A stretch of 32,000 bases of DNA from an uncultured Verrucomicrobiota bacterium (GTDB lineage Bacteria > Verrucomicrobiota > Verrucomicrobiia > Limisphaerales > UBA8199), in the NCBI GenBank assembly GCA_942493075.1, contig OW818681.1, positions 4,156,964-4,188,963 of the forward strand. Reading direction: 5' to 3'. Below the pieces are notes generated by a model. The model was not told the origin of the DNA and did no database searches. It saw only the letters and a list, made by a program, of their open reading frames with translations. Of the stretch, positions 10,051 to 31,976 are shown one piece after another. The position numbers and the translations under genes were made by a program. The stretch's first letter is position 1. Each line of letters starts with the position of its first letter.

Positions 10051-10074
10051 ATTTCATATCGTGTAAGCAACCAT

Positions 10075-10254: not shown

Positions 10255-10559
10255 TTATTCTTGAGGAATCCCGTAGGAACATACTTGCGCAGGTACTGGC
10301 GGTAGAGAGTTTTGAAGCGTTCTTGCGAACAAGAAAACTTGAGTGTAACCCGCAAGTGTTTTAGAAGGGCAGTGGGCGTCTTTAGGTTCGGACCGTAATG
10401 GTCAATCAGAAAGGCCATGACTTGGTGGTCCTCGAGCGATCGAGGATTGTGTCTGGTATTCGCTTTCATGGCTTTCAGAAGGAAAGAACGACAGCACGAC
10501 TGAGCCTGCTTTCGTGAGTGATGAGGGCGTCTTACCTTGGCTGTACCTCTACTTCGCAT
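10251..10559 (-). CDS. Small hypothetical protein (102 aa; may start at the internal Met MKANT, nt 10469)
   Basis: The ORF begins 5 nt after the herA-like stop. The C-terminal ~70 aa look protein-like (SLEDHQVMAFLIDHYGPNLKTPTALLKHL). I recognise no family. Confidence 0.45.
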   Translation of the reverse strand: MRSRGTAKVRRPHHSRKQAQSCCRSFLLKAMKANTRHNPRSLEDHQVMAFLIDHYGPNLKTPTALLKHLRVTLKFSCSQERFKTLYRQYLRKYVPTGFLKNK

Positions 10560-10564
10560 AAATG

Positions 10565-12355: not shown

Positions 12356-12358
12356 ATT

Positions 12359-13549
12359 CTAGATGCCAGTCATGTGAACCTGCTCGGGGTCTTCGAGAAA
12401 TGCGCCCCGCAGCAACCCTTCCTGCTGGGCGTACTGAAGGAGCAAATCGCGAGCGGTTTTGCGCTCCTGTTTGGTGAGGCTGGCGCGCCGATGGGCGGCG
12501 TGCATGGGATACGGGTAACCGTAACTGCGCACCTCATGACAGGTGAAGTCCAGCTCCTCAAAGAACCGTGCTTCTTTTTCATCGTCGCCGGCCAAATGGG
12601 TCTGCCACCAGGCAGCGTCCACGTCCACGCGCATGGGAAAGGCCGTGGCCTCGAACTTGAACAGGTAAGACACACTGAGTTTGGGTGGGATTTCCCGGTC
12701 TTTGAGGAAAGAGAGGGGCGTGTCACCTAAGGCCTCGGAGGGGAGACGCAAAAACCAGTGCGATTTGAGACCGTGTTTATCGCGGGCCAGCCGACCGATG
12801 AAATCGCCGTTGGGGATGTTGTGTGATTTGCACAACGCGACGATGCCGGTGTTTTGTTCGTTCGCCTTGGTGATCAGGTAGCGCTTCAAGAGTTCAGGCA
12901 GATAAGGGGAATCGCCGAGAAGGAAATAGACCAAGGACGTATCCATGATCAGATACCTGGGTTTCTGCTGAAGGAGATGAATGGCCATACCCAATTCCGC
13001 CAGCGAACGGAGGAGGTAAGCGTGCGTCGCAACCTGCGAAGCATGAGAGATGGCGAAGTTGGCCCAAGTCACCTGCGACGGCTTGAGCGACTTGCCAAAC
13101 TGAGAGTAAACGGCGCAATAGTCCGACTCTTTGACCAATTCTTCTAGGCCCAGTCCGACGAGCGACTCTAAAAATGTTTTGTAAGCATCGGTCAACGCCT
13201 TGGGTTGATCCTGCAAAACAATGTGGCGTTTCAGCAGTGGCCCAAGACCACCCACCGCCGCCATCTTGCTTTGACGGGCACTCTGGGTATCGTAGGTGAC
13301 GCCGGCCGCGGTGGCGAAATGAACGAACACATCATCTTGTTGGATGATGGGGAACTCTCCTGAACCATCCACGGCACAAATGCGAAAATCCTGATCGAGG
13401 GTCGTGGTGTGCCGATACGGTCGGATGCGCTGAGCAAGAGTGTTGATCTCCTTATCCGTGGGTTTTGCGCCCTCGATGGCTCGCTTGAACTGCAGAATTG
13501 CTGCTCGCGAGGAGTCCAGCAAAGCCCGGTCTAGGAGGTCGAAGTCCAT
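12359..13549 (-). CDS. nurA: NurA-like 5'-3' nuclease
   Basis: N-terminal ICAVDGSGE (the NurA DGS motif). A second LIMDTSLVYF motif stands in for DGSL. C-terminal YGYPYPMHAAHRRASLT fits the NurA GYPyxLxxAH pattern. It sits 10 nt downstream of the DpdA-like gene and 3 nt upstream of herA. Confidence 0.75.
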   Translation of the reverse strand: MDFDLLDRALLDSSRAAILQFKRAIEGAKPTDKEINTLAQRIRPYRHTTTLDQDFRICAVDGSGEFPIIQQDDVFVHFATAAGVTYDTQSARQSKMAAVGGLGPLLKRHIVLQDQPKALTDAYKTFLESLVGLGLEELVKESDYCAVYSQFGKSLKPSQVTWANFAISHASQVATHAYLLRSLAELGMAIHLLQQKPRYLIMDTSLVYFLLGDSPYLPELLKRYLITKANEQNTGIVALCKSHNIPNGDFIGRLARDKHGLKSHWFLRLPSEALGDTPLSFLKDREIPPKLSVSYLFKFEATAFPMRVDVDAAWWQTHLAGDDEKEARFFEELDFTCHEVRSYGYPYPMHAAHRRASLTKQERKTARDLLLQYAQQEGLLRGAFLEDPEQVHMTGI

Positions 13550-13559
13550 GATTACATGC

Positions 13560-15776: not shown

Positions 15777-15991
15777 GAACAACAAAACAACACATTCTCA
15801 AGAACTTAGAGTTACATAGAGTATTTGTGCAGGAGGCACAAGGATAAGCGGGCGAAGACCCGTAAAACTAGTTAACCGAAACAAGGATGATTAAGGAAGC
15901 TGGTTGGAGATCGCAAGGAGAATAGAATCGTTTGCTGACATTCACCTACCAGAATGGCCCGACAACGACGAAATAGAAGAAACAAATGCGT

Positions 15992-16663
15992 CTAGGGCTG
16001 TAGAAGCTTATTTTGGTCCAAAAGTTTCTGCAAAATGCGAGTTGCTAACTCGGTAGCAGGATCAAACGAACACGGCAGGGTTCCCGCAGCGGCGCAACCC
16101 GCAACGTCCTCGGGGCGGTAGCGAACCCCACCATTCTTTTGCAGCCGCTGGACGTGCTCTTCAGAGACCCCATCTTGCAGGAGTGCTTCGCATATGGATT
16201 TAACCCATTCCGCGTCACCCTCTCTTTCTGCGGGCCAATCTTGGAGAACTGCCAGATCAATTCCGGCATATCTGAACACCGCCAAAACGAACGTTGCACA
16301 TGTAAGACCGACTCCGGTGTCACCCAAGAGCCACCGTCCGGTTTCATCATCGAAGCAGTCGGATGGCGCGCTGAAGCCGTAAGGCATACCAGCGCGATTG
16401 GCTTTAAGAACCTGACGACAGCGGACGGCTACTTGCAGAGCCCTTACTGTGTGGATTGGGGGATCTACCCAAAGGTAATGTGGCTTGGGATTCCGCTCAC
16501 GGAGGTCATGATGCCATGCCAAGTCAGCAAGTTTGATCTCATCCTTTAAATCTGTTTGGAACAGGATTCCTAAATGCTGCTGGCCATTTCCCATTAAGGC
16601 AATGGCTACTGCAGCATTCCGAATCTCATTAAATCCACGCTCCTCCTGTGAGTAGACCCGCAT
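15992..16663 (-). CDS. Hypothetical protein (223 aa)
   Basis: The ORF looks protein-like in composition. It has a conserved-looking His (LAWHHD) and Cys (GLTCATFVLAVF), faintly reminiscent of a papain-like/NlpC-type fold. This is not supportable beyond hypothetical. Confidence 0.6.
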   Translation of the reverse strand: MRVYSQEERGFNEIRNAAVAIALMGNGQQHLGILFQTDLKDEIKLADLAWHHDLRERNPKPHYLWVDPPIHTVRALQVAVRCRQVLKANRAGMPYGFSAPSDCFDDETGRWLLGDTGVGLTCATFVLAVFRYAGIDLAVLQDWPAEREGDAEWVKSICEALLQDGVSEEHVQRLQKNGGVRYRPEDVAGCAAAGTLPCSFDPATELATRILQKLLDQNKLLQP

Positions 16664-16687
16664 TTTGCTTGATACTCCTGTGCTGGC

Positions 16688-17362
16688 CTAGGGCTCAAGC
16701 CCTGTGAGCAAATCATCATCCCACTCCCTGCGCTCTTTGATGAGAGACTCAGCTTGCCGGAACAAGTGCGCGCGCGATGGCAGCTTCGATTTTGCGGGTA
16801 GCGTCGCGGTCAACAAACCCACAAGCAAGTTGGTGGAGAGTGTAGCATAATTCGTGTTTGCAACTATAGAATCCACGTCGGCAAATCGACCCCTACGAAA
16901 GAATTGATCTATGCGTTCATAAAGCAGGTCCAAAGCCGCATGCACGCGACCCTGTTTGTCTAGCCTGATCATCGGCTCAAAGAACTGGCTCCCTGAACGG
17001 TCCGGCGTTTCCGTGCAAACCATCGAGCGCTTAGGTAAATACCTGCGCTCGTACCCCAACTCCAAGAGGCGTGAGGCGTGGAAAATGTTGTGAGACAATT
17101 GTTTTGCGCAGAAGCCGAAGTCTTCATCCTTGGTGAAGACCTCAAAGACATCTTCATCTGGGAGTGCGCAAGTGCAAAATTGGGAGAAAACAGATAGGTA
17201 ATTCTCCTTAGCGGCCTGCTGTTGACGTCCCGGATTTAAGAAAACGACACGGCCAGTGGGTTGTGTTTCTCCGGAACGAGTTCTTCTGGTGGAATCCCGC
17301 CAGAGATCTTTGACAGACAAAGGAAAAAATTCTCTTGTGTAAGATATCGGAACCTCATTCAT
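16688..17362 (-). CDS. Hypothetical protein (224 aa from the Met of MNEVPISY)
   Basis: The ATG at 17362 gives an ATGAATGA overlap with the stop of the upstream 232-aa ORF (17355-17357). The track start at 17419 would overlap by 65 nt. I recognise no family. Confidence 0.6.
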   Translation of the reverse strand: MNEVPISYTREFFPLSVKDLWRDSTRRTRSGETQPTGRVVFLNPGRQQQAAKENYLSVFSQFCTCALPDEDVFEVFTKDEDFGFCAKQLSHNIFHASRLLELGYERRYLPKRSMVCTETPDRSGSQFFEPMIRLDKQGRVHAALDLLYERIDQFFRRGRFADVDSIVANTNYATLSTNLLVGLLTATLPAKSKLPSRAHLFRQAESLIKERREWDDDLLTGLEP

Positions 17363-18053
17363 TGTTACCTTGCCTCCCTGGAATAATTGTTGGGATTTTT
17401 GCCTTAGCTTGGAGTTCACTCTGAGCAGTCCTCGATTTAAGCATTGCGCGCTCGCACTGCTTCATGAGGAGCTGGATGTCATCCTCGTCAATCGAGAGGC
17501 TGAGGACGTGGTCTCCTTGGGGGTCGTCGTAACGGACAATGAGCGTGTGCGAAATGACCGTGCCACGCAGCTGTGTGGCGTCGTCACTGAATACAGGACG
17601 GATATCAGTGAGAATGCGGGCGCGCTGGAGGAGTTCAGCATGCTCATACGAAAGATCGAGGGCTTTGGCTGAGAGATAAATAATCTCTGAGTTGAAGAGG
17701 TTCTTAACTTCTCGCTCTACACCTTTCCAAGCCTCAAATTGCTCGTGTGTCCAACCAGACTCAGACGGGTCCAACGCAAGTCGGAGAGCGCCGAAAATCT
17801 GATTAGGGTTGATATTCAGATTCCTTAGCACCCCGTGCAGTGCTAGCAATTGGCGAAGGATGGGCTCACTTGCAGACCCCGAGGCGGGCCCTAGAGCAGC
17901 GGCGATCGCCTCCTGCAGTTTACCGGGCGAAACTGGCTCTTGAGGCAAGCTGTTGAGGTGTTGAGTCAGCCTTTGGACGGTTTCTGAGCCAAGTTCAGAA
18001 ATCAATGCCAAATCGGCCTTATGCTGCGCTTGCAGCCTAATCTGGGGTTCCAT
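17355..18053 (-). CDS. Hypothetical protein (232 aa)
   Basis: First gene of a three-gene lower-GC cluster. An AT-richer 244-nt intergenic region lies upstream. I recognise no family. Confidence 0.6.
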   Translation of the reverse strand: MEPQIRLQAQHKADLALISELGSETVQRLTQHLNSLPQEPVSPGKLQEAIAAALGPASGSASEPILRQLLALHGVLRNLNINPNQIFGALRLALDPSESGWTHEQFEAWKGVEREVKNLFNSEIIYLSAKALDLSYEHAELLQRARILTDIRPVFSDDATQLRGTVISHTLIVRYDDPQGDHVLSLSIDEDDIQLLMKQCERAMLKSRTAQSELQAKAKIPTIIPGRQGNNE

Positions 18054-18297
18054 GTCAGTTATTAAGCATGTCGGTTTAGCCGGATATTACAGTTATTGCG
18101 ACTTCACGCAAGAGCATGCATGATTTTTCAGAGAACTGCTCTAAATGACCAACAGACAGCTTCATCTCTCGTCAGTTAAGTATTTGGCATAAAGAAAGTC
18201 AAGGCCCTGAAGTTGACCGCCCCAGAGCGAAATTCAAGCTCATTTCCGCACTTTCATACGTAATCGTGGCTCATGAACCGGCTTTGTCAATCCGAGT

Positions 18298-19137
18298 CTA
18301 ATACCTATCCTCGTTCAAGCTCCTGTCGAGTTGCGCTGAGGCAACTATGGCGAAGGCTGAGTGATTGTGGATGCTTTCCTGGTTAACGGCGCGGACTTCG
18401 AACCAGGTGATGCGTTTGTCTTTCTTTAAGAGGTGGGCGGCGTTGCGGACGACGTCCTCGACGAAGACTGGGTTATCGAAAGCTTGCATGGTGACGTGGC
18501 GTTCGTCAGGACGTTTTAGAAGGGGATAGACGGGAGCGGATGCGGAACGTTCGGCGATATCAATGAGTTCCTCGATCCAGATGAGTTCCCATAGACCGTT
18601 CGTGCGCTTGGGACGGACCGTGACGGTGACCTGTCCCCGCTGATTGTGGGCACCGTAGTCACTGATTTCTTTGGAACAGGGGCAAAGGGTGGTGACTGGC
18701 ACTTTGACACGAAGAAGGAAGTCGTCCGTCTTTCCGTTGGACTGGCCGATAAAGGTGCAGCGGTAGTCCATAGGTGCCTGGGACCCAGACACGGGTGCGG
18801 TGCGGGTTAGGAAGTATGGAAATTCGACCTCGATGTGGGCGGCTTCCGAATCGAGATGCTGCTTAAGATCATGGAGGATGGCAGGCAGGGTTCGCATGGT
18901 TACCTCGCCCTGGTGCCGGCTGAGAATTTCGAGGAACCGGCTCATGTGGGTGCCTTTGAAGTGGTGCGGGAGGCTTACCGACATGGAGATAGTGGCGACC
19001 GTTTGTTGCTTTTGATTCTGACGGTCGAGGACGGCAATAGGAAAAGAGAGGTCGCAGATGCCAACGTTATCTATTGGCACGCCGCGGCGGTCTTTGGTTT
19101 TCTGGATGTCGGGTAACTGGCGAGCGGGAGATTTCAT
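18298..19137 (-). CDS. folE2: GTP cyclohydrolase I type 2 (FolE2/IB)
   Basis: IDNVG...LPHHFKGTHMSRF is the FolE2 signature. About 280 aa. It starts 3 nt after the queD stop. Confidence 0.88.
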   Translation of the reverse strand: MKSPARQLPDIQKTKDRRGVPIDNVGICDLSFPIAVLDRQNQKQQTVATISMSVSLPHHFKGTHMSRFLEILSRHQGEVTMRTLPAILHDLKQHLDSEAAHIEVEFPYFLTRTAPVSGSQAPMDYRCTFIGQSNGKTDDFLLRVKVPVTTLCPCSKEISDYGAHNQRGQVTVTVRPKRTNGLWELIWIEELIDIAERSASAPVYPLLKRPDERHVTMQAFDNPVFVEDVVRNAAHLLKKDKRITWFEVRAVNQESIHNHSAFAIVASAQLDRSLNEDRY

Positions 19138-19140
19138 GAA

Positions 19141-19596
19141 TCAATCCCAGTATTCGGCCCAGGAGCAACTGGTTTCCCAAAGGCGAACTTTCACTACGCG
19201 AACCGTGGAACGTAAAGGATAGGGTGCGGCGGGGTCGGCGGCGTAAGTCGCGAGCTTGGCTTTGACGACGTCATGGATTGTCTTGGCCATGACTTCGGTA
19301 GTGGGATCCATGCATTCAAAAGCCACCACGCGATCACCGAACGCAGCCTTCAGGGGTGTGAAGTTGGGGTCCTGAGTGTTGACGCAGATCGCGTGATCGA
19401 GTGTTTTAAGATAATCGTTAAGGCTGGCTTTGAGAGCCTTGAAATCACAGACCATCTCGTTGGAATCGAGCGTGTCCGCTTCAATTACGACTTCAACTTT
19501 GCGGCTGTGGCCGTGGGGGAATTTGCACAGGTCGGGGTGCTTTGAAAGCATGTGTCCGTTCTCGATTTCGAAGGTTTTACAGATGCGGTATGGCAT
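19141..19596 (-). CDS. queD: 6-carboxy-5,6,7,8-tetrahydropterin synthase
   Basis: FEIENGHML...CKFPHGHSRKVEVVI (His triad of the PTPS/QueD family). 151 aa. It directly abuts the queE stop. Confidence 0.88.
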   Translation of the reverse strand: MPYRICKTFEIENGHMLSKHPDLCKFPHGHSRKVEVVIEADTLDSNEMVCDFKALKASLNDYLKTLDHAICVNTQDPNFTPLKAAFGDRVVAFECMDPTTEVMAKTIHDVVKAKLATYAADPAAPYPLRSTVRVVKVRLWETSCSWAEYWD

Positions 19597-20289
19597 TTAG
19601 GTTCCTCGTGTGTGGCCAAAGAGTTCGACGTGAAGACGGTTGCAATAGCGGTAGCCATGGCGTTTGCAGACGTCCAAAAGGGTTTCGGCTCGACCGCGAA
19701 GCACGGCTGTTGATGTGCCCTCGGGCATGAGCAGGATTTTTGCTGGCGGGACTTTTTGACGGAGGTCGTGCAGGAGGGATTGGATTTCCTGAACATCCGA
19801 GGCGGAGTTGACTACGAACTTGAGCTGATATGTGTAGTGATCGAGCCACTCGGAGATTACGGCTGGGTGCCGCCTTAGGTTTTCATGCTTCTCGCGCCAA
19901 GCCGTCGGCAGCCGGTTATCCGGAGCTGAGTTGCTGAGCTTTGGACTGAGTGACGCGAGATCGCAGATGATGCCATTCGGCGGGACGGTTGCCGCCGTCT
20001 CGATGGTTATATGTTTCCCTGCCTGGCGAAGAGCTGCTGCGAGTTCGTGAATTCCCTTGGCGATCATCGGCTCGCCGCCGGTTAGAACGCAATGCTGAGC
20101 GGGGAAAGAATCCACCTTGCGGAGAATTTCGTCCGGAGCCATGTCTTTGCCTTCCGGGTCCCACGAGGCGTACATGGTGTCGCACCAGTTGCAGCGGAGG
20201 TTGCAACCGGAGGTCCGAATAAAAACGGACGGGACGCCCGTGAGTTCGCCTTCGCCCTGGATGGAATAGAATATCTCCGATATAAGCAT
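19597..20289 (-). CDS. queE: 7-carboxy-7-deazaguanine synthase (radical SAM)
   Basis: True start is the ATG at 20289 (MLISEIFYSIQGEGELTGVPSVFIRTSGCNLRCNWCDT). The 91-codon N-terminal extension in the track runs through queC and is rejected. Confidence 0.9.
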   Translation of the reverse strand: MLISEIFYSIQGEGELTGVPSVFIRTSGCNLRCNWCDTMYASWDPEGKDMAPDEILRKVDSFPAQHCVLTGGEPMIAKGIHELAAALRQAGKHITIETAATVPPNGIICDLASLSPKLSNSAPDNRLPTAWREKHENLRRHPAVISEWLDHYTYQLKFVVNSASDVQEIQSLLHDLRQKVPPAKILLMPEGTSTAVLRGRAETLLDVCKRHGYRYCNRLHVELFGHTRGT

Positions 20290-21440: not shown

Positions 21441-21680
21441 TTCGTGGCCGTCAGCATGGCATTTTTCTTCGCAAGAGAAAATTGAAATCGCGCGAGGAAT
21501 GGAGGGTGGGCATACGGGCGGGAGGAGGGGGCAGTGCGACAGGGGGACGGGGGTAGGGTGTGACATTTGCTGGCATAACCGGTAGGATCGGGTATGCGAC
21601 AGAAGCGACTCGGCCCAAAACAGGCGGCACGCGGGAAGAATGAGGGGGATTTGTGGGCGCATGGTTACGGTCGGGCGGCG

Positions 21681-22649
21681 ATGGAACGGATGATGCGGAT
21701 TCATCGAAAGATCGAGGATCGCGAATACCCGAACTGCACCAAGATGTCGGCGGAGTTTGAAGTCAGCGTGCGGACGCTGAAGCGGGATATCGAGTTCATG
21801 AGGGATCGGTTGGAGTTGCCGATCGCTTTTGATGTGCCGAAGAATGGCTACTTTTTCACCAAGTCGGTGCCGCATTTCCCGAGGGTTCCCCTGACTGAAC
21901 GGGAGATTGTGGGGTTGTTCGTAGCGCAAAAGACGATCGCGCAGTATCAGGGGACTTCACTTCAGCCGGTTCTGGATTCCGCTTTCCGGAAAATGACGGC
22001 GCAATTGGATGATAGCGTGCAGTTCTCGCTTGATGGGGTGGATGAGGTGATGTCGATCCGTCCGTTTGCACCTGGGGATGCGGAGCTGGAGACGTTTGAG
22101 ATCCTGACCCGAGCGGTTCGCGAGCGGCGCGTGGTGCGGTTTGTGTATCGGAAGCATGGGGAGCAGAAGCAACTGCAGAAGTGTGTGCATCCGTATCGGG
22201 TGGCTTACGTGAATAATCAGTGGACGCTTTTTGCGCGTGACCCTAAGGCGGGTGCGCTGGTGCGGAAGTTCATCCTGGCCCGGCTGAGCAAGCCGGAGTT
22301 GTCGGCGGAAAAGTTTAGCGTTTCTGAGCGGTTCGATCTGGACAAGGAGTTGAGTGGCAGCCTGGGGGTGTTCAAGGGGAAGGATGATTACGAGGTGGTG
22401 GTGGAGTTCGATGCCTGGGGTGCGGATGATGTCCGGGGCCGGCTCTGGCATCCGAGCCAGGAGTTGACCGATCACCCAGGGGGCGGGCTTACCTTAAAGA
22501 TGCGTTTGAACAGTTTGGAGGAGGTGGAGCGGTGGGTGCTCGGTTATGGGAGGCATGCGACGGTTGTGGGGCCGGCGGAGCTGAGGGAGAGGGTGCGGGG
22601 TGTGGCCAGCGATTTGGTGAAGAGGTATGGGGGAAAAGCTAAAAGCTGA
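21681..22649 (+). CDS. WYL-domain transcriptional regulator (wHTH-WYL-WCX architecture)
   Basis: MERMMRIHRKIEDREYPNCTKMSAEFEVSVRTLKRDIEFMRDRLELPI is a DeoR/HTH_11-like N-terminus. The central part has VVRFVYRK...VHPYRVAYVNNQWTLFA (WYL-like SH3 strands). The start is ambiguous: ATG 21594 is in frame, and I prefer 21681. The gene is divergent from queF. Confidence 0.8.
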   Translation: MERMMRIHRKIEDREYPNCTKMSAEFEVSVRTLKRDIEFMRDRLELPIAFDVPKNGYFFTKSVPHFPRVPLTEREIVGLFVAQKTIAQYQGTSLQPVLDSAFRKMTAQLDDSVQFSLDGVDEVMSIRPFAPGDAELETFEILTRAVRERRVVRFVYRKHGEQKQLQKCVHPYRVAYVNNQWTLFARDPKAGALVRKFILARLSKPELSAEKFSVSERFDLDKELSGSLGVFKGKDDYEVVVEFDAWGADDVRGRLWHPSQELTDHPGGGLTLKMRLNSLEEVERWVLGYGRHATVVGPAELRERVRGVASDLVKRYGGKAKS

Positions 22650-23038: not shown

Positions 23039-23112
23039 CCAAGGGGGCAGTCACCGGCTGGCAAATTAGATGCCGCACTATCCCGACGGGTCGGGAGGTG
23101 ACTGCCCCTTGG
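23039..23112. other. 16-bp inverted repeat with structured 41-nt spacer
   Basis: ccaagggggcagtcacc (23039-23055) pairs with ggtgactgccccttgg (23097-23112), with one bulged G. The spacer contains its own hairpin cccgac-gg-gtcggg. Confidence 0.6.
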
Positions 23113-23542
23113 CCAGAGTCATAGGAGGGTCGGCTCTTCGTGGTGGGTGGTGTTTGCATTCCTGAGGTTTGGCGTTCGGGTCGGTGGTGCTCGAAGTAGT
23201 TGAGAGTTCCGAGTTGAGAGTTGAAGGTTGGGCGTGGCACTCCTGCGGTTTCGCGTTTGGGTCGGTCGTATAAACCAATTCCTGGCCGCACTTGTGGCAG
23301 TGGGTCCAACCACTGCCAGCGGGATACCAGTTGATGCCGCACTGGGCGTGCCCGGGCGGGTGCTTTGCCCGGTAGGCGGCCTGGCGTGCGAGGCGGCGGG
23401 AGAGCTTTTCGAATTCCTTTTTTCGTTTGGCCTCGACCTTTGCTTGAAGGGCGTCCGCCTTCGCCTGGCTACGGCGCGACAAGGCGGCTTGCTCGGCGTC
23501 GCGTATGTGCTGTTCGAAAGGGAGGAAGGTTTGGGAGTTCAT
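23078..23542 (-). CDS. Hypothetical protein with coiled-coil N-terminus and Zn-ribbon-like HxxC...CxKCG segment
   Basis: I prefer the ATG at 23542 (MNSQTFLPFEQH). It contains the motif CGINWYPAGSGWTHCHKCGQ. The C-terminal third is built from a duplicated TDPNAKPQEC segment flanking a heptamer array, so the native C-terminus is uncertain. Confidence 0.5.
   Translation of the reverse strand: MNSQTFLPFEQHIRDAEQAALSRRSQAKADALQAKVEAKRKKEFEKLSRRLARQAAYRAKHPPGHAQCGINWYPAGSGWTHCHKCGQELVYTTDPNAKPQECHAQPSTLNSELSTTSSTTDPNAKPQECKHHPPRRADPPMTLAKGQSPPDPSG
23198..23232 (+). repeat. NGTTGAR heptamer micro-array (5 units) inside a CDS, flanked by 33-nt direct repeats
   Basis: agttgag agttccg agttgag agttgaa ggttggg. 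Flanks 23156-23188 and 23237-23269 are identical at 28 of 33 positions (gcattcctgaggtttggcgttcgggtcggtggt vs gcactcctgcggtttcgcgtttgggtcggtcgt). Confidence 0.8.
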
Positions 23543-23660
23543 AGGGGTGTGGTGACTGGATTGACCGGATTGACGGGATTTAAGGGCTCGAGCGTAGGAA
23601 CACATGAGAGAGTTGAGCGGGGAGGCGGCTTGCGAGACCGCCTCCCCTGCCCCGTTGCGT

Positions 23661-24116
23661 TTAGTCTTCGTCGGGTAGCATGACGGTGATGGCCGGGGCT
23701 GGGTTGTCGATGTCGAGCGGGCCTGCGGTGGCGATCAGCTTTGTCAGGCGGGCGGGTTTGTTATCGGAGTTGCGGACGTAAAGCGCCACAGGGAGCCTTC
23801 GGCTGGTTGATGGTTGAGTGTTGAAAGTTGAATGTTTCAGGATGGCAAAGCGGAGCATCCAAACGACGTCCCACAAGCGGCCGGCTTCATCTTGGGCAGT
23901 CACTCCAGGCGGAACGGCAACGCATTCTTCATAAACTCCGCGTGTGATGAAGACGGGGAAGCGGATACCGGCTTCCTGTGCGGTCTTGGTGACGTCGATT
24001 TGGAAGCCGTCGGCGATGGCCTGGGCGCGGGTGTAGGTGTAGATGAGTTCAAAGTTGAAGGTTGAAGGTTGATCGTCCGGATCACTAAGGGGCGGTTGAG
24101 GGTCTTGAGAGTTCAT
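23661..24116 (-). CDS. Hypothetical protein (151 aa) of mobile-element type
   Basis: The core YTRAQAIADGFQIDVTKTAQEAGIRFPVFITRGVYEECV...RLWDVVWML looks like a conserved small globular protein. I recall similar proteins next to radC/anti-restriction genes but cannot name the family. It contains two in-frame heptamer arrays. Confidence 0.65.
   Translation of the reverse strand: MNSQDPQPPLSDPDDQPSTFNFELIYTYTRAQAIADGFQIDVTKTAQEAGIRFPVFITRGVYEECVAVPPGVTAQDEAGRLWDVVWMLRFAILKHSTFNTQPSTSRRLPVALYVRNSDNKPARLTKLIATAGPLDIDNPAPAITVMLPDED
23805..23832 (+). repeat. NGTTGAR heptamer micro-array (4 units) inside a CDS
   Basis: ggttgat ggttgag tgttgaa agttgaa. On the minus strand it is read as HSTFNTQPST in the middle of the 151-aa protein. 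Confidence 0.75.
24053..24073 (+). repeat. NGTTGAR heptamer micro-array (3 units) inside a CDS
   Basis: agttgaa ggttgaa ggttgat. The 17-mer aagttgaaggttgaagg (24052-24068) is identical to 27221-27237. On the minus strand it is read as QPSTFNFEL near the N-terminus. Confidence 0.75.
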
Positions 24117-24135: not shown

Positions 24136-24657
24136 TTAGGCGTAGAAGTAGCCGAGTTCGCGCAAGCTGGCGTGGCCGGGGTTTCCCATGATGACATGAT
24201 CGAGGACTTCGACTTTGAGGAGCTGTCCCGAGCGGATAAGGTCGCGCGTGACTTTGATGTCAGCTTCGCTTGGGGTGGGTTCTCCGCTCGGGTGGTTGTG
24301 CATGAGGACAAGCGCGGCGGCGGAAGTCATGACGGCAAGGCGGAACACGGTGACTGGATGAACCAAGAGGGTGTCATGAGTGCCCATGGTGACGATTTGA
24401 TGGGCCTTAATCCGATGACGGGTGTTGAGTAACAACACGGTGAAGCATTCGCATTCGGGGTTGAAATAAGGGTTGGGAGTGACATGGAGGCGCCAGTAGT
24501 CGGCGGCTTTCTGCGGAGTGTCGCAGATCTGCAGGGTTTCTGGCGTGGGGCATTCGCGGAGCGGGACAACCTTATACTCGTGAGGCTGCGCTGCGAATTG
24601 GAACGGCTTAACAATGTCGTCCAGGCCGGGGAGTTGGGGAGTAAAAGCGGTGTTCAT
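24136..24657 (-). CDS. radC: RadC-like JAB/MPN-domain protein (DUF2466 family)
   Basis: HDTLLVHPVTVFRLAVMTSAAALVLMHNHPSGEPTPSEADIKVTRDLIRSG contains the HNHPSG...S..D JAMM-like motif typical of RadC homologues on mobile elements. Confidence 0.88.
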   Translation of the reverse strand: MNTAFTPQLPGLDDIVKPFQFAAQPHEYKVVPLRECPTPETLQICDTPQKAADYWRLHVTPNPYFNPECECFTVLLLNTRHRIKAHQIVTMGTHDTLLVHPVTVFRLAVMTSAAALVLMHNHPSGEPTPSEADIKVTRDLIRSGQLLKVEVLDHVIMGNPGHASLRELGYFYA

Positions 24658-24709: not shown

Positions 24710-25162
24710 TCAGGCGGCTTGGAGGTCGTTTGCGGTGCGGGCGGCCGTGGCCATGTGGCTGCCGTATTTTTCGCGGGGGTCCTGGTTCGAGCCGGTGCTG
24801 AACTGGCCGCAAGGGTGCTGCCAGCATTTGCGGATGTTGTTCCAGTGGAATCCGAACTGGGAGAGCTGTCCGCGGAGTTGCTCGGCGGGCTGCTCGGGGA
24901 AGGTGACCCAGACCCACTTGCCTACTACTTCGGCAAGCTCGTAGGCCTGGGGAAGCCACTCGCGAAGCATGCCCAGGACTTCATCGGTGGGGAGAGTGCG
25001 GTTGGCCTCGCGCTGTTCGAAGTTCACGTAAGGCCGGGGGCGTTTGCCATGGGCCGTTTGCTGCTGGTGTTGGCTGTTTCCGCTAGACTGCTCGGGACGG
25101 AAGCTGAGCCCTGAAACTGCTGTTCTGTTTTCTGTTTGTTTGTTGTTGGATTTAGTTTTCAT
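24710..25162 (-). CDS. Hypothetical protein (150 aa from the Met of MKTKSNNKQ)
   Basis: I prefer the ATG at 25162, with an A-rich leader. The N-terminus is K/N/Q-rich and looks disordered. The C-terminal core is GKWVWVTFPEQPAEQLRGQLSQFGFHWNNIRKCWQHPCG. I recognise no family. Confidence 0.6.
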   Translation of the reverse strand: MKTKSNNKQTENRTAVSGLSFRPEQSSGNSQHQQQTAHGKRPRPYVNFEQREANRTLPTDEVLGMLREWLPQAYELAEVVGKWVWVTFPEQPAEQLRGQLSQFGFHWNNIRKCWQHPCGQFSTGSNQDPREKYGSHMATAARTANDLQAA

Positions 25163-25373
25163 GGTGTTTTTTTTTGTGGTGTAGCGGCTTTGCTCCGCTT
25201 GCTGCTCGGTCCGGTCTTTCGCCCTTTCACCCCTTGGCACGCGCATTAGGGCGGCACGCGGGAGTAATCTTCAGAGGGCACCGCGGTTTTTGCCCCCTAA
25301 TGAGAAAGCGGGCGGTGAAGGGCGAGAGACTGGACCACCTTGCAGCAGAGGGAGCACACCGCAAAAAAACACC
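25163..25373 (+). other. ~211-nt near-continuous imperfect hairpin (structured RNA or single-stranded-DNA element)
   Basis: By hand folding, 25163-25231 pairs with 25314-25373 (about 53 bp, including a 20-bp run 25211-25231/25314-25333). The apical part has cattaggg/ccctaatg (8 bp) and cgcgg/ccgcg (5 bp). All four non-Watson-Crick pairs in the stems are G:T on the + strand (25177:25361, 25199:25348, 25213:25331, 25218:25326). On the minus strand these would be A:C. Confidence 0.75.
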
Positions 25374-25581
25374 TGAAGAACCTAACAAACTTCAGAAAAG
25401 AGAGCGGGCAGAGTGGAGGCGGAGCCCGATTCTGAAGCTTCGAACAAGGTGAGCTGATCAAAGGTGTTCGGGAAAGAGGGTGAATAAGTTTTATTACGGA
25501 GTGTCATTGGATGTCACACCGGGTGGGGTATCGTGGGCTCAAATACCAGAAAAGCTGGAAGTCTGAGAACCAACTAATGAT

Positions 25582-25845
25582 ATGAAACCGACCAATAGAG
25601 GAACACCAACCAGAAGCCCGGAAACCAGTGACCGGCGGCAGGAGCAGACGCCTGAACAATGGTGGGCGGGATTGAGTCTGTCCGAACGGAGAGCCGTGCA
25701 GATGCTTGGAGGGATGATCGAGGAGGTAACGGAAAAGGCGTGGATTGATATCCGCCGGGAGGGCGGAGTTGTTCGTGTGCGGTTCCTTGAAATCATGCAC
25801 CCGCCAAGGCCGGGCAGTCTCAGAAGGAGGGTGATGGGTTCATAG
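25582..25845 (+). CDS. Small hypothetical protein (87 aa)
   Basis: ATG ORF with plausible composition (EQWWAGLSLSERRAVQMLGGMIEEVTEKAWIDIRREGGVVRVRFLE). It is the first ORF of a + strand gene string. There is no homology-based support. Confidence 0.4.
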   Translation: MKPTNRGTPTRSPETSDRRQEQTPEQWWAGLSLSERRAVQMLGGMIEEVTEKAWIDIRREGGVVRVRFLEIMHPPRPGSLRRRVMGS

Positions 25846-29515: not shown

Positions 29516-30006
29516 AAACCATTGTCGCGATAGATCCCGGGATGTCGGGCGGTGTCGCCGTCTGGTGGGGTGGAAGGGTCGAATGCTGGCCGATGCCGGA
29601 AACGCAGGGCGATTTGCTCGAGCGTCTGCGCGAGATCCACAAGGCGGCTCTTCTCGAAGCGGAATCACATGGGGGATCAGAGCTCGCTTGCGTGCTGGAA
29701 GAAGTGGGCGGGTTTGTCGGGAAAGCACAGCCGGGCTCAGCCATGTTCCGATTCGGTGAGCATTGCGGATTTATCAAGGGGGTTGTGCAAGCGCTGGGCA
29801 TTCGGCTGGTCCTGGTGCGTCCCCAGGTTTGGCAAAAGGGCTTTGGACTGGGCACGGCTTCTTCGTGCGCCAGCAAGACGGAGTGGAAAAACAAACTCAA
29901 GGCGGAGGCGCAACGTCGATTTCCTCATCTGAATGTGACCCTCAAAACGGCGGATGCGCTGCTGATACTCGACTACGCGCTACGTGGAGGGGACACGAAG
30001 AGGTGA
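29512..30006 (+). CDS. RuvC-like (phage-type) Holliday junction resolvase
   Basis: MKTIVAIDPGMSGG (first catalytic Asp), VLEEVGG (Glu), and C-terminal TADALLILDYAL (Asp). About 160 aa. An SD-like aagggag sits 2 nt upstream of the ATG. Confidence 0.7.
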   Translation: MKTIVAIDPGMSGGVAVWWGGRVECWPMPETQGDLLERLREIHKAALLEAESHGGSELACVLEEVGGFVGKAQPGSAMFRFGEHCGFIKGVVQALGIRLVLVRPQVWQKGFGLGTASSCASKTEWKNKLKAEAQRRFPHLNVTLKTADALLILDYALRGGDTKR

Positions 30007-30122
30007 CGGATGGGACTGATGGGACGGACCTAACCGCTAACTACAACACAATTTTGGGAACGGCGCGCTCGGGCGAGCACGCCCTACCAGCAACAAAAAC
30101 AAAGAACAGAAAGACAGGAAAC

Positions 30123-30881
30123 ATGAAGATCAAAGGAAATGGCAGCAACTTCGAGGCGTGCCCGGAATTCACTGGCAAAGCCGTGTGTGTGGACGTGACT
30201 CCTCTGCGGAAGCAGCAAAGTCAATTTGGTGAACGCGATGTGTTCAAGGTGGTGTTCGAGGTGGACATGGATAAGGAGGACGGCAGCCGGTATTGCGTTT
30301 GGTCGCAGAACTTCACGCCTTCACTGAATGAGAAGGCGAACTTCCGCAAATTCCTCCGGTCCTGGTTTGGGCGCGATCTGATGGAGAGCGAGATGGCGGA
30401 GTTTGACACCGAGACGCTGATCGGCAAACCGGCGCAACTGGTGGTGGTGCACGAACACAAGGATGGCCAGGTGTATGCCAACATCGCCGCAGTCCTACCT
30501 GATAAGAGTCCTGATCGAACGGGGCTGAAACCTTCCGGCAAATTCACGCGGCGCAAGGATCGTCCGGCGGATGACGGCGGTCAGAAGCCGGAGAGCGGTG
30601 GGCAAGGCGGGTATCGTCGGGCCCAGGGTGCCAGTCCAGAGAACCGAGGGCAGAACGCGGGTGGCACTGACCACGGGGCTGTGAAGGTGCATGTGGGCAA
30701 GTACAGCGGGATCGAGCTTCGAGACCTGAATCCTGAGGCGGTGCAAGCGCTGGTGGATAAGTGGCTGCCGACGGCAAAGGCAAACGCCAAGCCGACGGCG
30801 GATGATCGGCGACTGATGGCGGCGCTGGAGTGGTGGGCGGCGGAACGCGCGCGTGGAGAGGAGGACAACGTTCCGTACTGA
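30123..30881 (+). CDS. Phage-type hypothetical protein, possible OB-fold/ssDNA-binding (DUF669-like) N-terminal domain
   Basis: I prefer the ATG at 30123 with an A-rich leader; the upstream in-frame part of the track ORF overlaps the resolvase gene. FTGKAVCVDVTPLRKQQSQFGERDVFKVVFEVD...GKPAQLVVVHEHKDGQVYANIAAVLP has an OB-like strand pattern. The middle is G/R-rich and looks disordered. Confidence 0.55.
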   Translation: MKIKGNGSNFEACPEFTGKAVCVDVTPLRKQQSQFGERDVFKVVFEVDMDKEDGSRYCVWSQNFTPSLNEKANFRKFLRSWFGRDLMESEMAEFDTETLIGKPAQLVVVHEHKDGQVYANIAAVLPDKSPDRTGLKPSGKFTRRKDRPADDGGQKPESGGQGGYRRAQGASPENRGQNAGGTDHGAVKVHVGKYSGIELRDLNPEAVQALVDKWLPTAKANAKPTADDRRLMAALEWWAAERARGEEDNVPY

Positions 30882-31088: not shown

Positions 31089-31976
31089 ATGACATTGATT
31101 GAACGACAGGCGCCGAGCCATTGGTATCTGAGGGATGGACGGCCTTTTCATGAAATTGCGAATGCCAGTGGCACTGGCAATAGACCGGTGACGCTGCGGG
31201 ACGCGCGGAAGGTGATGGCGTTTCCGAGTGTAACGAATGTGCTTGGGGTGCTGGCCAAGCCTGGCTTGGACGCGTGGAAGATCGAGCAAGGAATCATGGC
31301 GGCGTTGACGCTGCCGCGCGTTCCGGATGAGCCGCTGGATGTTTTCGCGCGTCGGGTGGTGGACGACATGGGTGAGCAGGTAGAGAAAGCCGCCGACTTC
31401 GGGACGGCGATTCACAATGCCTGTGAGGTGTACGCGCTCAACAAGCAGATGCCGACTGATCCGAAGCTGCGAGCGCATCTGGAGCCGTGGCGAAACTGGT
31501 TTGATGCGAACGTGGAACGGATCGGGTGCATTGAGCAGGTGTTCGTTCACTCCGAGCACGGCTATGCCGGGCGAGTGGACATGGTGGCACTTCTGAAGAG
31601 CGCCAGCGGCGGCGCTCCCTACTGGGCTGTGGTGGATTTCAAAACGCAGAAGGTGAAACGGTCTGCGAAGGGTGAGCCTAAGCCGGTGTTTTATGAGACC
31701 TGGCCGCTGCAATTGGAAGCGTATCGGCAAGCCGTGCTGGTGAGTGGAGCTAAGAATGTCACGGGGCTGGTGTCAGTTGTGATCGATAGCTCCGTGCCTG
31801 GGCCGGTGCATGTGAAGGTGTGGGGTGAAGGCCGGAAGTCTGAGAGCGGAGATCGGAGGTCAGAAACCGAAGAGTATTTCGGGGCGTTCAGGGCGGCGCT
31901 GGCATTGTGGAAATATGTGAAGGGGTATGACCCGGTGGATCCGCAATTGGGCTGCGGGAATCCGAGCCTGAATTAG
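31089..31976 (+). CDS. PD-(D/E)xK (RecB/Cas4-like, phage exonuclease-type) nuclease
   Basis: FGTAIHNACEVY (motif I), YAGRVDMVALL (Asp), WAVVDFKTQK (DxK) and LQLEAYRQAV (QxxxY). Confidence 0.7.
   Translation: MTLIERQAPSHWYLRDGRPFHEIANASGTGNRPVTLRDARKVMAFPSVTNVLGVLAKPGLDAWKIEQGIMAALTLPRVPDEPLDVFARRVVDDMGEQVEKAADFGTAIHNACEVYALNKQMPTDPKLRAHLEPWRNWFDANVERIGCIEQVFVHSEHGYAGRVDMVALLKSASGGAPYWAVVDFKTQKVKRSAKGEPKPVFYETWPLQLEAYRQAVLVSGAKNVTGLVSVVIDSSVPGPVHVKVWGEGRKSESGDRRSETEEYFGAFRAALALWKYVKGYDPVDPQLGCGNPSLN

Follow-up and report, generated by a model that had tools for sequence, protein, structure and literature searches.

An undescribed covarying hairpin family at the start of opposite-strand gene cassettes in phage-like islands of Verrucomicrobiota

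In a 32,000-nt stretch of DNA from an uncultured Verrucomicrobiota bacterium (the window), a long hairpin meets the start codon of a gene on the opposite strand, which raises the question of which strand the structure serves and in what form, DNA or RNA. An earlier note, made from the sequence of this stretch, had described a structured RNA or a single-strand promoter of conjugative-element type. With RNA parameters, 25163-25373 forms a single, nearly unbroken hairpin on the + strand, with a minimum free energy of -120.1 kcal/mol (shuffles: mean -77.4, z -10.0, 0/200 as good), compared to -106.1 kcal/mol (z -7.6) for the - strand, and DNA parameters likewise place the + strand lower (-62.4 vs -58.2). 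The hairpin is real, both by this measure and by compensatory changes kept in dozens of genomes. The hand-folded stem of ~53 bp grows to ~80 pairs in the computed fold, and the four G:T pairs reported for the + strand become six G:U pairs there as against two on the - strand, an asymmetry in the direction described. The T9/A7 helix, the apical helices of 8 bp and 5 bp and the long arm segment (here a 19-nt arm pair, 25208-25226 / 25318-25336) were all recovered. The base of the stem does contact the ATG at 25162 but does more than touch it, with TTTTCA (25156-25161) paired to TGAAGA (25374-25379) and T25162 bulged, and the fold that includes this basal extension (25155-25380) reaches -126 kcal/mol. 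As the pairing runs across the ATG, the start codon and the first codons lie within the basal helix (Table 1); the 5' base holds CAT (25160-25162), the complement of the start codon of the first cassette gene (P0001), with C and A paired and T bulged.

Table 1. Hairpin parts and adjoining genes, in positions of the window
Feature	Position	Strand	Basis or remark
Full structured element	25155..25380	+ (template of abutting gene)	Includes basal helix spanning the start codon; fold and family conservation
Conserved 5' base, GTTTTCA-T-GGTG-T9	25155..25175	+	Consensus GTTTTCAT / GGTCTTTTTTTT
Conserved 3' base, A7-CACC-TGAAGAA, partner of 5' base	25363..25380	+	Consensus aAaaa.gAcc / TGaAaAc
Conserved core, covariance model R1 (134 positions, 39 pairs)	25206..25338	+	R1 match
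Duplex box CGCCCTTTCACC, conserved in sequence	25220..25231	+	Pairs with 25314-25324; alignments
Duplex-box partner GGTGAAGGGCG	25314..25324	+	Alignments and covariation table
Apical motif GGGAGTAATCTTCAGAGGGCACC, nearly invariant	25260..25282	+	Invariant alignment columns
P0001, 150 aa, unknown family, first cassette gene	24710..25162	-	ATG inside hairpin base; 191 relatives
RadC-like JAB protein, second cassette gene	24136..24657	-	PF04002, E 6.6e-34
DUF6573 protein, third cassette gene	23661..24116	-	Alongside P0001 in 54/81 related loci
175-aa protein, unknown function, fourth cassette gene	23078..23605	-	12 related loci
First gene of rightward main axis (towards replication and head genes)	25582..25845	+	Same orientation as folding strand

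The hairpin is present as a single copy in the 6.53-Mb host genome (blastn and covariance model) and belongs to a family distributed across the host order (Verrucomicrobiota subdivision 3), in which model R1 matches 35 of 151 genomes, about a quarter. At the core in this window, R1 scores 139.2 bits on the + strand vs 27.4 bits on the - strand. Members are about 137-222 nt long with ~70 base pairs, and their pairing is maintained by substitutions on both sides: 27 of 42 pairs are compensatory amongst 18 homologues and, across 75 distinct sequences, 36 of the 39 pairs in the R1 core vary on both sides, with 92.1% of cells paired and a covariation score of 0.534 vs 0.17 in shuffles (0/500 as high) and 0.05-0.09 in slid controls. 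The basal helix follows the pattern GTTTTCA-T-GGTC-T8 ... A6-8-GACC-TGAAAAC and holds the opposite-strand start codon in >100 loci, the stem beginning with zero gap after CAT in most members; the exact motif GTTTTCATNNNNTTTTTT is found a single time in the window, as it is in each of >100 related loci.

Other parts of the element are conserved in sequence. The pairs of helix 2, formed by the duplex box, are close to invariant (CG:68, CG:59, CG:66, UA:63), and the apical motif is composed of an internal loop (GAGUAR / GGGCA), a 2-bp mini-stem and a YNYR tetraloop (UUCA 50, CUCG 7, UUUA 6, UUCG 3 and UACG 3 across the family), around which a 37-nt blastn core has 86-92% identity to relatives. 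A by-eye comparison of the apical loop with K-turn and sarcin-ricin motifs gave no convincing match. No Rfam 15 family, including radC RNA (RF01754), STAXI (RF01728) and 6S RNA, was matched at gathering scores in the whole window, and searches at E up to 10 returned only MIR898 (30.7 bits vs a gathering score of 75) and an lncRNA fragment. The region had no blastn match amongst 72,556 plasmids or amongst phages. The hairpin is a member of an undescribed covarying family that heads opposite-strand gene cassettes in phage-like islands, which encode capsids and bear integrases.

In this genome, the host of the hairpin is a 56-kb island integrated at tRNA-Leu and flanked by 55-bp att repeats, which encodes an integrase, TerS, TerL, portal, scaffold, major head protein and an Ad1 adaptor, as well as a replication module with an NGO0469-family initiator, a PrimPol/D5 helicase and a PIF1 helicase. 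This capsid-encoding, phage-like setting replaces the conjugative leading region that the earlier note had envisaged. Signatures of VirD4, VirB4 and MOBH/MOBP/MOBF relaxases are missing from the genome (PF02534, PF07514, PF03135, PF03432 and PF08751 absent in a profile search), the sole TraG-D_C match (PF12696) lies 1.5 Mb from the island, and no Rep/HUH, relaxase or SSB gene was recognised among the scanned island genes (Pfam, PHROG, NCBIfam). No tail genes were recognised in the island either, where several ORFs are unannotated. The island may be a capsid-forming phage satellite (cf-PICI-like), a type with an integrase, a replication module and head and packaging genes of its own but without tail genes; its length of 56 kb and the unannotated ORFs make this assignment tentative.

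The folding strand has a constant relationship to this gene order. It always coincides with the G-rich strand of the main axis: in each of the 22 relatives that were mapped it points the same way as TerL, portal and capsid genes, and here, as the + strand, it is the G-rich strand of the island and is oriented like the replication and packaging genes. Folding-strand GC skew is +0.126 over the cassette, whose genes are on the opposite strand (positive in 98% of loci), and +0.117 over TerL, which is on the same strand, while the skew of the island in this window reaches +0.25. When GC skew is read as the product of cytosine deamination, the G-rich strand is the one that is longer single-stranded. 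In most relatives the cassette and hairpin lie reversed between TerL and portal; in this window and in two relatives (L066 and L069) they are located at the head of the replication module. Several unrelated gene families are found behind family hairpins, and some related elements possess a second copy in the same orientation at a distance of 1.4-5 kb, both copies being followed by genes.

The P0001-RadC-DUF6573 cassette is among the most repeated gene sets of these genomes. P0001, with the motif VVGKWVWVTF...GFHWNN.RKCWQHPCG, has no family in Pfam or NCBIfam and one marginal PHROG match, and its Atlas neighbours are hypothetical proteins of Verrucomicrobiota and Uroviricota, plus a RadC-fused form. 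Its structure model (pLDDT 64.7) had no fold match in the PDB (best E 0.37), and DUF3560 matched at a TM of just 0.25; the fold gave no function. A clear Shine-Dalgarno sequence is missing from most island genes, which makes a Shine-Dalgarno test of the cassette uninformative.

Based on the G:T pairs of this one sequence, selection had been proposed to act on the folded + strand, the template of the abutting minus-strand genes, and this is borne out across the family. Under RNA parameters the template strand folds more stably than its complement in 62 of 63 members (-102.2 vs -89.9 kcal/mol), and DNA parameters give the same result for 60 of 61. Template and mRNA-sense folds contain 324 vs 98 G:U pairs and 13 vs 86 A.C 1x1 mismatches, respectively, and the fixed core structure has 128 G:T and 46 A:C. 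The basal 20 nt show the bias most strongly, with 93 vs 6 G:U and 0 vs 15 A.C. Mutation bias resulting from the extreme GC skew of the island was rejected as the main cause of the G:T pairs because the asymmetry is unchanged in loci almost without skew: strand bias and flanking GC skew are uncorrelated (Spearman rho ~0) and, in loci with a skew <0.03, the energy difference between strands is still -11.4 kcal/mol. Frpo1 and Frpo2 of the F plasmid, folded as a control, are asymmetric in the same direction. It is on the template strand of the gene with the embedded start codon that selection maintains the fold, and this argues against a role as an mRNA leader.

Promoter signals that could accompany such a fold are scarce. 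No site with sigma-70 -35/-10 boxes was detected within 25000-25700, and the arms of family members reach 8/12 box matches in only 2/61 and 1/61 cases, below shuffles. The rRNA promoters of the host carry TTGACA-N16-18-TAAGAT or TAAGGT, and because such boxes are present there and missing from the stem, the host sigma-70 RNA polymerase is not an obvious reader of the hairpin. In 63 of 66 loci, the 500 nt ahead of the cassette hold no sigma-70-type duplex promoter. Sigma-54 (GG-N10-GC) and ECF-type boxes, searched by eye in the conserved apex and arms, had no consistent spacing.

The tentatively preferred reading, itself less likely than not, is that the hairpin works as a single-stranded-DNA start signal for the cassette. 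One-directional replication of the island would expose the G-rich strand, and on the exposed strand the hairpin would rebuild a duplex where the cassette (P0001, RadC, DUF6573 and the following genes) begins. A polymerase may then take this duplex as the start of an RNA, as transcript and/or primer, reading leftward into the cassette, such that an anti-defence-like, opposite-strand cassette would be switched on only while the island's own unidirectional replication exposes that strand. An RNA started in the hairpin duplex would carry a short A-rich leader only; a transcript from the duplex form of the DNA would include the whole hairpin, with the start codon buried. To an observed structure with its covariation, strand bias, embedded start codon, co-orientation and island setting, this model adds a single-stranded DNA state, recognition by a polymerase and a start site, all of which we infer. 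A more specific version, in which the element is a promoter or primer site in a dsDNA, capsid-forming island, is read without recognition of sigma-70 boxes and couples the cassette to replication, is somewhat more doubtful.

Several observations point towards this single-stranded-DNA model: the fold (z -10) with its covariation, the template-strand selection also seen in the proven ssDNA promoters Frpo1/Frpo2, the link to gene starts with several gene families and two co-oriented copies, a folding strand that is G-rich over both the cassette and TerL, and the loci without a duplex promoter upstream of the cassette. In size, too, the rod-like stem of ~70 bp is comparable to ssi, sso and Frpo elements (PMC9849209, PMC5714925). 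Against the model are the absence of -35/-10 boxes from either arm, the failure to recognise a Rep/HUH, relaxase or SSB gene, and the dsDNA packaging genes (TerS, TerL, portal) together with a theta-type NGO0469 initiator; the island has no obligatory single-stranded entry stage. Some traits are RNA-like, namely G:U at ~7% of pairs and some UUCG/UACG tetraloops (an argument of PMC2864571), and the swaps of G.A to A.G and A.C to C.A in the apical internal loop also look RNA-like. The earlier suggestion of an ssDNA promoter is partly supported: the structure, the selection on the template strand, the Frpo-like asymmetry and the paired copies agree with it, while the non-conjugative setting and the stems free of sigma-70 -35/-10 boxes do not. 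Of the outcomes that the note had named as refuting it, a phage-like element lacking conjugation genes is half borne out.

Conjugative plasmids (Frpo), rolling-circle plasmids (sso) and ssDNA phages have hairpins that work only on one exposed strand, setting the time of the earliest gene expression or priming synthesis of the second strand, and the Frpo/ssi ssDNA promoters reportedly go back to work by Masai and Arai in 1997 (cited in PMC9849209 and PMC11541004). The single-stranded-DNA model shares the logic of these elements, though the hairpin is not a member of any of their families. Frpo and ssi elements are ssDNA promoters in the leading regions of conjugative plasmids (Frpo1/Frpo2 of F, ssi of ColIb-P9), and Frpo stems reconstitute canonical -35 (TTGACA) and -10 (TATAAT) boxes (PMC9849209, PMC11541004); F has two copies, likewise ahead of genes (PMC9849209). 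The likeness includes a long template-strand stem-loop just upstream of small early or anti-defence-type genes, a template-strand fold that beats the mRNA-sense fold (checked on F itself), the two co-oriented copies a few kb apart in related islands and, as proposed for the hairpin, a gene readable only from the exposed strand. Despite this, the stem does not rebuild -35, -10 or UP boxes, and without sigma-70 boxes the hairpin is therefore not a member of Frpo. Further, it has no sequence similarity to plasmids, its host is a capsid-encoding phage-like island without a T4SS or relaxase, its apex is strictly conserved, and it includes the start codon, whereas the F hairpin ends ~45 nt upstream of a Shine-Dalgarno leader.

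The sso of rolling-circle plasmids and the ssi/minus-strand origins of ssDNA phages are imperfect hairpins of 150-250 nt, specific in strand and orientation, with conserved loop elements, located on the displaced strand and active as single-stranded DNA only (PMC5714925). Similarly, the folding strand of the hairpin is the G-rich strand expected to be exposed; however, neither a rolling-circle Rep nor a double-strand origin was recognised, the island instead having an NGO0469-type initiator and PrimPol/D5 helicase, and the tight coupling to a start codon is a property of the hairpin that sso and ssi do not share. Structured motifs near radC, antirestriction, integrase and SSB genes of mobile elements have also been reported as radC RNA (RF01754) and STAXI (RF01728), for the latter of which the authors raised a single-stranded-DNA function (Weinberg et al. 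2010; PMC2864571). The hairpin is likewise a conserved structured motif adjoining mobile-element genes of that kind, but it was not matched by their Rfam models even at E up to 10, those motifs belong to Proteobacteria and Enterobacteria, and the hairpin is a single 70-bp rod favoured on the strand opposite the gene.

The strand-bias data apply equally to a close rival, only slightly less probable than the single-stranded-DNA model, in which a + strand RNA, antisense to the cassette, takes up the fold. Such an RNA would derive from transcription of the main axis (read-through of TerS-TerL in most relatives, the WYL regulator gene here), and its hairpin would cover the leader, start codon and first codons, silencing or processing the mRNA through kissing loops and/or RNase III when the main operon is on, with the C.A mismatches keeping the mirror hairpin of the mRNA weaker so that ribosomes open it. 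The peak of the bias at the translation start is expected if the mRNA copy must stay openable. As the folding strand is oriented like the TerL, portal and capsid genes and the cassette, in most mapped relatives, lies reversed between TerL and portal, late transcription would make this antisense RNA, and in L094 the terminator behind the cassette functions in the cassette direction only. The apex is also suggestive of RNA, with 66 of 69 tetraloops fitting YUNR and with non-Watson-Crick swaps in the loop, as is the ~7% G:U, which is typical of structured RNAs; the UUCG or UACG tetraloops of some members stabilise RNA, not DNA (PMC2864571).

Scans of the antisense strand, which covered sigma-70-type promoters and intrinsic terminators, do not favour the antisense RNA. 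Promoter-like sites upstream of the hairpin are no more frequent than the shuffle level, occurring in 5/67 loci within 170 nt and 3/65 loci within 800 nt (both below shuffles). No intrinsic terminator was found in the hairpin region, where T-runs stand 5' of the stem on both strands, and without a terminator behind it the hairpin is not a stand-alone sRNA gene, though a read-through RNA is compatible with this. In this window, the read-through would have to extend at least 2.5 kb across antisense genes. Locking the anti-start-codon segment in the basal helix is a poor antisense design, 70 bp of near-perfect dsRNA would be an RNase III substrate, and a cis-antisense pair does not need strict conservation of the apical sequence. 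Known cis-antisense RNAs over translation starts (FinP/traJ, IS10 RNA-OUT/RNA-IN, SymR/symE) have in common with the hairpin a stable structure opposite the start codon, a mirror hairpin in the mRNA and YUNR-type recognition loops, but the Verrucomicrobiota hairpin is two to three times longer, lacks a promoter or terminator of its own and has its anti-start segment paired rather than exposed.

An improbable explanation is a structured 5' leader of the cassette mRNA, a - strand RNA that would hide the start codon and so control translation. In >100 loci the basal helix does take in the start codon, the A-rich leader and codons 2-3, a buried start codon is a classical design for translational control, and the - strand RNA still folds strongly, both here (-106 kcal/mol, z -7.6) and as a family mean (-89.9). 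Nonetheless, in 62 of 63 members the mRNA-sense fold is less stable than that of the template, its G:U and A.C counts are similar (98 vs 86) where the other strand has the 324 to 13 pattern of a functional strand, the deficit is largest in the very helix that holds the start codon (G:U 6 / A.C 15 vs 93 / 0), and local mutation bias does not explain the difference. In this respect, the strand test corrects the mRNA-leader reading that is natural for such hairpins.

Very little weight is given to a folded single-stranded recombination site of the integron attC or CTX-phage attP type that would move the P0001 cassette between island positions. The strand-specific fold, the two island positions at which cassette and hairpin occur and the presence of tyrosine recombinases would accord with it, but the base lacks an R/L-box-like core (GTTRRRY), the element sits at the 5' end of a gene and includes its start codon, it is far longer than attC, second copies stand ahead of other genes within the same gene array, and nothing resembling a cassette array was observed. 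A dispersed palindromic repeat (MITE, REP or ERIC-like) or a functionless chance palindrome, for which an imperfect palindrome of ~200 bp and the weak match to the generic hairpin model MIR898 as sole Rfam similarity could be cited, is hardly credible, being contradicted by the single copy in the host genome, a constant position and orientation relative to the start codon within one element family, the strand bias and the strong covariation. Two further candidates were set aside: a retron ncRNA, as a long hairpin upstream of + strand genes, since no reverse transcriptase is among the neighbours, and an origin, telomere-resolution or pac site, since the copies stand in front of different genes, the apex does not form a palindrome and the island is an integrated one.

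What is new at this locus is a strand-specific control element tied base-for-base to start codons, and the same strand logic as in the plasmid and ssDNA-phage hairpins inside islands that package dsDNA in their own capsids. If the element acts as DNA, the reach of single-strand promoters or primers would widen to a further, new class of mobile elements, with replication of the element itself as a new trigger; expression and replication would then be linked in a setting other than conjugation or ssDNA phages. If it acts as RNA, it would constitute an unusually long antisense lock on the P0001, RadC and DUF6573 cassette. For either form, model R1 and the motif GTTTTCATNNNNTTTTTT provide a searchable marker for these islands, and a search of IMG/VR with the apical motif matched one viral contig (L055).

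On the + strand, positions 25163-25373 of the window fold into a single near-continuous hairpin of -120.1 kcal/mol (RNA parameters), compared with a mean of -77.4 kcal/mol for shuffled sequences (z -10.0; 0 of 200 equally good). The long hairpin folded by hand in the earlier note is thus borne out by computation, and its proposed arms were recovered by a repeat finder. The predicted advantage of the + strand also holds, the - strand of the same interval reaching -106.1 kcal/mol (z -7.6; RNA parameters), with values of -62.4 and -58.2 kcal/mol for the + and - strands under DNA parameters; the approximately 80 pairs include six G:U pairs on the + strand versus two on the - strand. The stem had been described as touching the ATG of the minus-strand gene, and while the abutment is correct, the two do not merely adjoin, since pairing runs on across the start codon (25156-25161 paired with 25374-25379, T25162 bulged) and places the ATG inside the basal helix.

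In blastn, the 381-nt region matched 14 of the 45 same-family genomes, which carry at most five copies each. A covariance model of the hairpin core (R1; 134 positions) matches once in its own genome. In an order-wide sample, 35 of 151 genomes have R1 matches; in the sampled remainder of the phylum only three of 151 do, its own genome counted. The hosts belong to Verrucomicrobiota subdivision 3 (Limisphaerales/Pedosphaerales). The Rfam search proposed in the earlier note returned no family, plasmid and phage DNA held nothing similar to the hairpin region, and a single IMG/VR contig carried a match. Compensatory changes, for which the note had also proposed a test, are abundant: RNAalifold on 18 homologues gave 42 pairs with compensatory double changes in 27, and in the model alignment of 75 distinct sequences pairing covers 92.1% of cells and 36 of 39 pairs have two-sided changes. 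The covariation score for these sequences, somewhat favored by an alignment fitted to R1, is 0.534; shuffles score 0.17, none of 500 reaching the observed value, and sliding the partners gives 0.05-0.09. The lower stem was analyzed by folding each sequence individually.

Conservation differs along the hairpin. One helix below the apex flips from G-rich to C-rich in one whole subfamily and is therefore structural only, while sequence is conserved in a duplex box (CGCCCTTCAC / GTGAGGGCG) and in the apical motif GYGG-GAGUAG-UC-UUCA-GA-GGGCA-CCRC. In the apical internal loop (window 25260-25282; columns 96-156 of alignment A4), subfamilies differ by non-Watson-Crick changes that are correlated (G.A to A.G, A.C to C.A, and GGGAG/AGAGGG to GGAAG/AGAAGG), a hint that the loop forms a specific three-dimensional motif or is bound by a factor.

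Both strands of 63 full hairpins were folded and the strand serving as template of the abutting gene (T-sense; the + strand in the window) was compared with the mRNA-sense strand (M-sense).

Strand comparison across the hairpin family (counts are taken over related sequences and overstate independent events)
Measure	T-sense	M-sense
Mean energy, RNA parameters (kcal/mol)	-102.2	-89.9
More stable strand, RNA parameters	62/63	1/63
G:U pairs	324	98
A.C 1x1 mismatches	13	86
Mean energy, DNA parameters (kcal/mol)	-54.7	-50.2
More stable strand, DNA parameters	60/61	1/61
Wobble cells, fixed core structure	128 (G:T)	46 (A:C, wobble if on M-sense)
G:U pairs, basal 20 nt	93	6
A.C mismatches, basal 20 nt	0	15

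A functional strand is expected to be rich in G:U and poor in A.C, a pattern seen in T-sense (25 to 1) but not in M-sense (about 1 to 1), and selection on the template strand of the adjacent genes, as had been suggested, is upheld. The basal counts place the strongest bias around the start codon, and its direction is constant in every subfamily. Because the GC skew of the island is extreme, mutation bias was tested as a cause of the G:T excess; mutation bias alone was rejected, the energy difference being uncorrelated with flanking skew (rho about 0) and still -11.4 kcal/mol at loci with skew <0.03. As a positive control, Frpo1 and Frpo2 of plasmid F have asymmetry in the same direction under DNA parameters (template strand, -119 and -125 kcal/mol; mRNA-sense, -112 and -114 kcal/mol). 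The hairpin is a real, selected structure, and the strand that folds is antisense to the gene.

The hairpin is also tied to the start of the opposite-strand cassette within a phage-like island. The CAT complementary to the opposite-strand ATG directly abuts the main stem (zero gap) in 14 of 19 and subsequently 52 of 63 homologues, and the family base reads GTTTTCA-T-GGTC-T8 ... A6-8-GACC-TGAAAAC, where TGAAAAC is the partner of GTTTTCA. The window has a single exact copy of the motif GTTTTCATNNNNTTTTTT, as does each of >100 loci. Full-length hairpins stand before homologues of P0001, the first cassette gene (R1 match just upstream in 61 of 80 P0001 loci), and shorter variants precede unrelated small proteins likewise starting MKT or MNT. 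In several elements, two copies lie 1.4-5 kb apart in the same orientation; a short subtype with the same apical motif (base GTGTTCAT...ATGAAC; L022, L023, L066:13596-13731, L067:14043-14178, and L069:5703-5839) stands ahead of another small protein (MNTxN...), co-oriented with the first hairpin and 1.8-4.8 kb downstream of it.

Features of the hairpin and the surrounding island (window coordinates unless stated)
Feature	Coordinates	Strand	Remarks
Hairpin	25155-25380	+	R1 core 25206-25338
P0001	24710-25162	-	150 aa, no family; left of hairpin
RadC-like JAB protein		-	left of hairpin, cassette
DUF6573		-	left of hairpin, cassette
Small unknown proteins		-	left of hairpin
QueF-like, QueC, QueE, QueD, FolE2		-	preQ0/preQ1 pathway set; left side
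DUF6884::TGT fusion		-	left side
396-aa ORF		-	no Pfam match, adjoins HerA; left side
HerA		-	left side
UvrD + PD-(D/E)XK nuclease		-	left side
Sacsin/NOV protein		-	1531 aa; left side
WYL-domain regulator	21594-22649	+	sole + strand gene of left arm
Tyrosine integrase, HTH regulator, helicases			far left of island
Orphan genes		+	right of hairpin
NGO0469-family phage replication initiator	29763-30881	+	372 aa; NCBIfam NF046043, 97.6 bits (cut-off 75)
PD-(D/E)XK exonuclease	31089-31976	+	adjoins initiator; right side
PIF1 helicase; PrimPol/D5 helicase		+	right side
TerS, TerL, portal, scaffold, major head protein, Ad1 head-tail adaptor		+	right side
Three ORFs between TerL and portal	L003:6511-8766	-	145, 175, 136 aa
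Left 55-bp direct repeat	genome 4148995-4149049 (window -7968)		integrase adjoins
Right 55-bp direct repeat	genome 4205331-4205385 (window +48368; L003:16368-16452)		3' part of tRNA-Leu(CAG) gene

The direct repeats and the tRNA-Leu copy define the element as a 56.4-kb integrated island. A 25-nt partial repeat copy at genome 4147801, beside a second, weak integrase-like ORF, suggests the remnant of an older insertion. The island itself (window, L002:~10000-19964, and L003:1-16400) carries head and packaging genes, no tail genes were recognized among its Pfam and PHROG matches (several ORFs lack annotation), and, judged by gene content, it may be a capsid-forming satellite-like element, unusually large at 56 kb. 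Defense-type cargo includes Dpd-like deazaguanine genes, HerA with the neighboring ORF, UvrD with PD-(D/E)XK, and the sacsin/NOV protein. The conjugative leading region envisaged in the earlier note is not there, as VirD4-type coupling protein, VirB4, and MOBH, MOBP/Q, and MOBF relaxase signatures are absent from the whole 6.53-Mb genome and the sole TraG-D_C match lies 1.5 Mb distant.

Among 81 related loci searched by tblastn with the island proteins, the conserved core comprised P0001 (81), DUF6573 (54), TerL (38), TerS (34), portal (29), scaffold (27), capsid (26), Ad1 adaptor (21), initiator (20), and PrimPol (15). For the P0001 family (window gene and loci L056-L135), the genome collection contains 191 relatives. 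One MAG has nine or more copies spread over separate contigs, and the islands are thus highly repeated within genomes. The cassette heads the replication module in the window, L066, and L069, while in most relatives it lies reversed between TerL and portal (L057, L060, L073, L083, L086, L094-L096, L101, L121, L123, and others), an unusual location for a separate transcription unit. No R1-family hairpin lies between TerL and portal in the island of the window, although relatives have the cassette there, and the three ORFs in that gap had no match in PHROGs, the one library scanned.

The + strand GC skew is +0.1 to +0.33 over the whole island (genome 4147000-4205000) regardless of gene direction, the flanking chromosome having the opposite sign, and relatives are likewise skewed strand-wide (about +0.12). 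T-sense is G-rich both in the cassette region (+0.126, with positive values in 98% of loci and T > A) and in the TerL region (+0.117), a skew that spans the strand and does not follow coding direction. In the established deamination reading, GC skew marks the strand more often single-stranded in unidirectional replication, and the observed skew is compatible with such replication of the element.

The folded molecule could be either DNA or RNA. Tentatively, and at less than even chances, the hairpin would act by analogy as a single-stranded DNA start signal for a transcript and/or primer on the exposed T-sense strand. The geometry is that of Frpo, ssi, and sso (template strand, ~70 bp duplex, multiple co-oriented copies before genes), the base at the presumed start is A/T-rich and G.T-rich, the folding strand is the one that skew marks as exposed, and scans for sigma-70-type sites reveal no obvious duplex promoter for the cassette. 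Neither a sigma-70 site nor an intrinsic terminator was found by consensus scan at 25000-25700, and upstream sites were infrequent on M-sense (3 of 66 loci within 500 nt) and T-sense (5 of 67 within 170 nt; 3 of 65 within 800 nt). Against a DNA signal, a single-stranded stage is not obligatory and sigma-70 boxes are missing from the stems (sites matching ≥8/12 positions: T-sense 3' arms, 2/61; M-sense arms, 1/61; shuffles, 4.2). Boxes at -35/-10 rebuilt in the stem are the hallmark of Frpo (PMC9849209, PMC11541004), and although both host rRNA operons use such promoters (TTGACA-N16-18-TAAGAT or TAAGGT), the hairpin family lacks this defining feature, so the Frpo-type identity proposed earlier does not stand. 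The hairpin would resemble Frpo, ssi, and sso in its working without the features that assign membership to any of them.

It is only slightly less probable that the folded form is instead antisense RNA. About 7% of the pairs are G:U, the apical loop shows the G.A/A.G and A.C/C.A swaps, and YUNR fits 66 of 69 loops. UUCG or UACG loops, present in some members, stabilize RNA and not DNA, an argument applied to STAXI (PMC2864571). T-sense runs along the main gene axis in 22 of 22 mapped loci and late transcription would traverse the hairpin in that direction in most relatives, with the terminator closing the L094 cassette (11330-11385) predicted to act in the cassette direction only. Conversely, sigma-70-type promoter and intrinsic terminator are both missing, the anti-start segment sits paired, and the duplex is of RNase III size; the scans do not support a stand-alone antisense sRNA gene. 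The likeness to a FinP/RNA-OUT-type antisense lock would similarly be one of working and not of membership, and neither the radC motif nor the STAXI motif is matched. An mRNA leader is improbable, as the strand test contradicts it for the R1 family (M-sense is the weaker fold), and a recombination site is very improbable.

P0001 had no fold match in PDB, and a P0001-like domain is fused to RadC in an Atlas cluster. Transcription from the WYL gene would cross the cassette antisense and then enter the hairpin, and a WYL homologue again adjoins a hairpin in L066 and L069.
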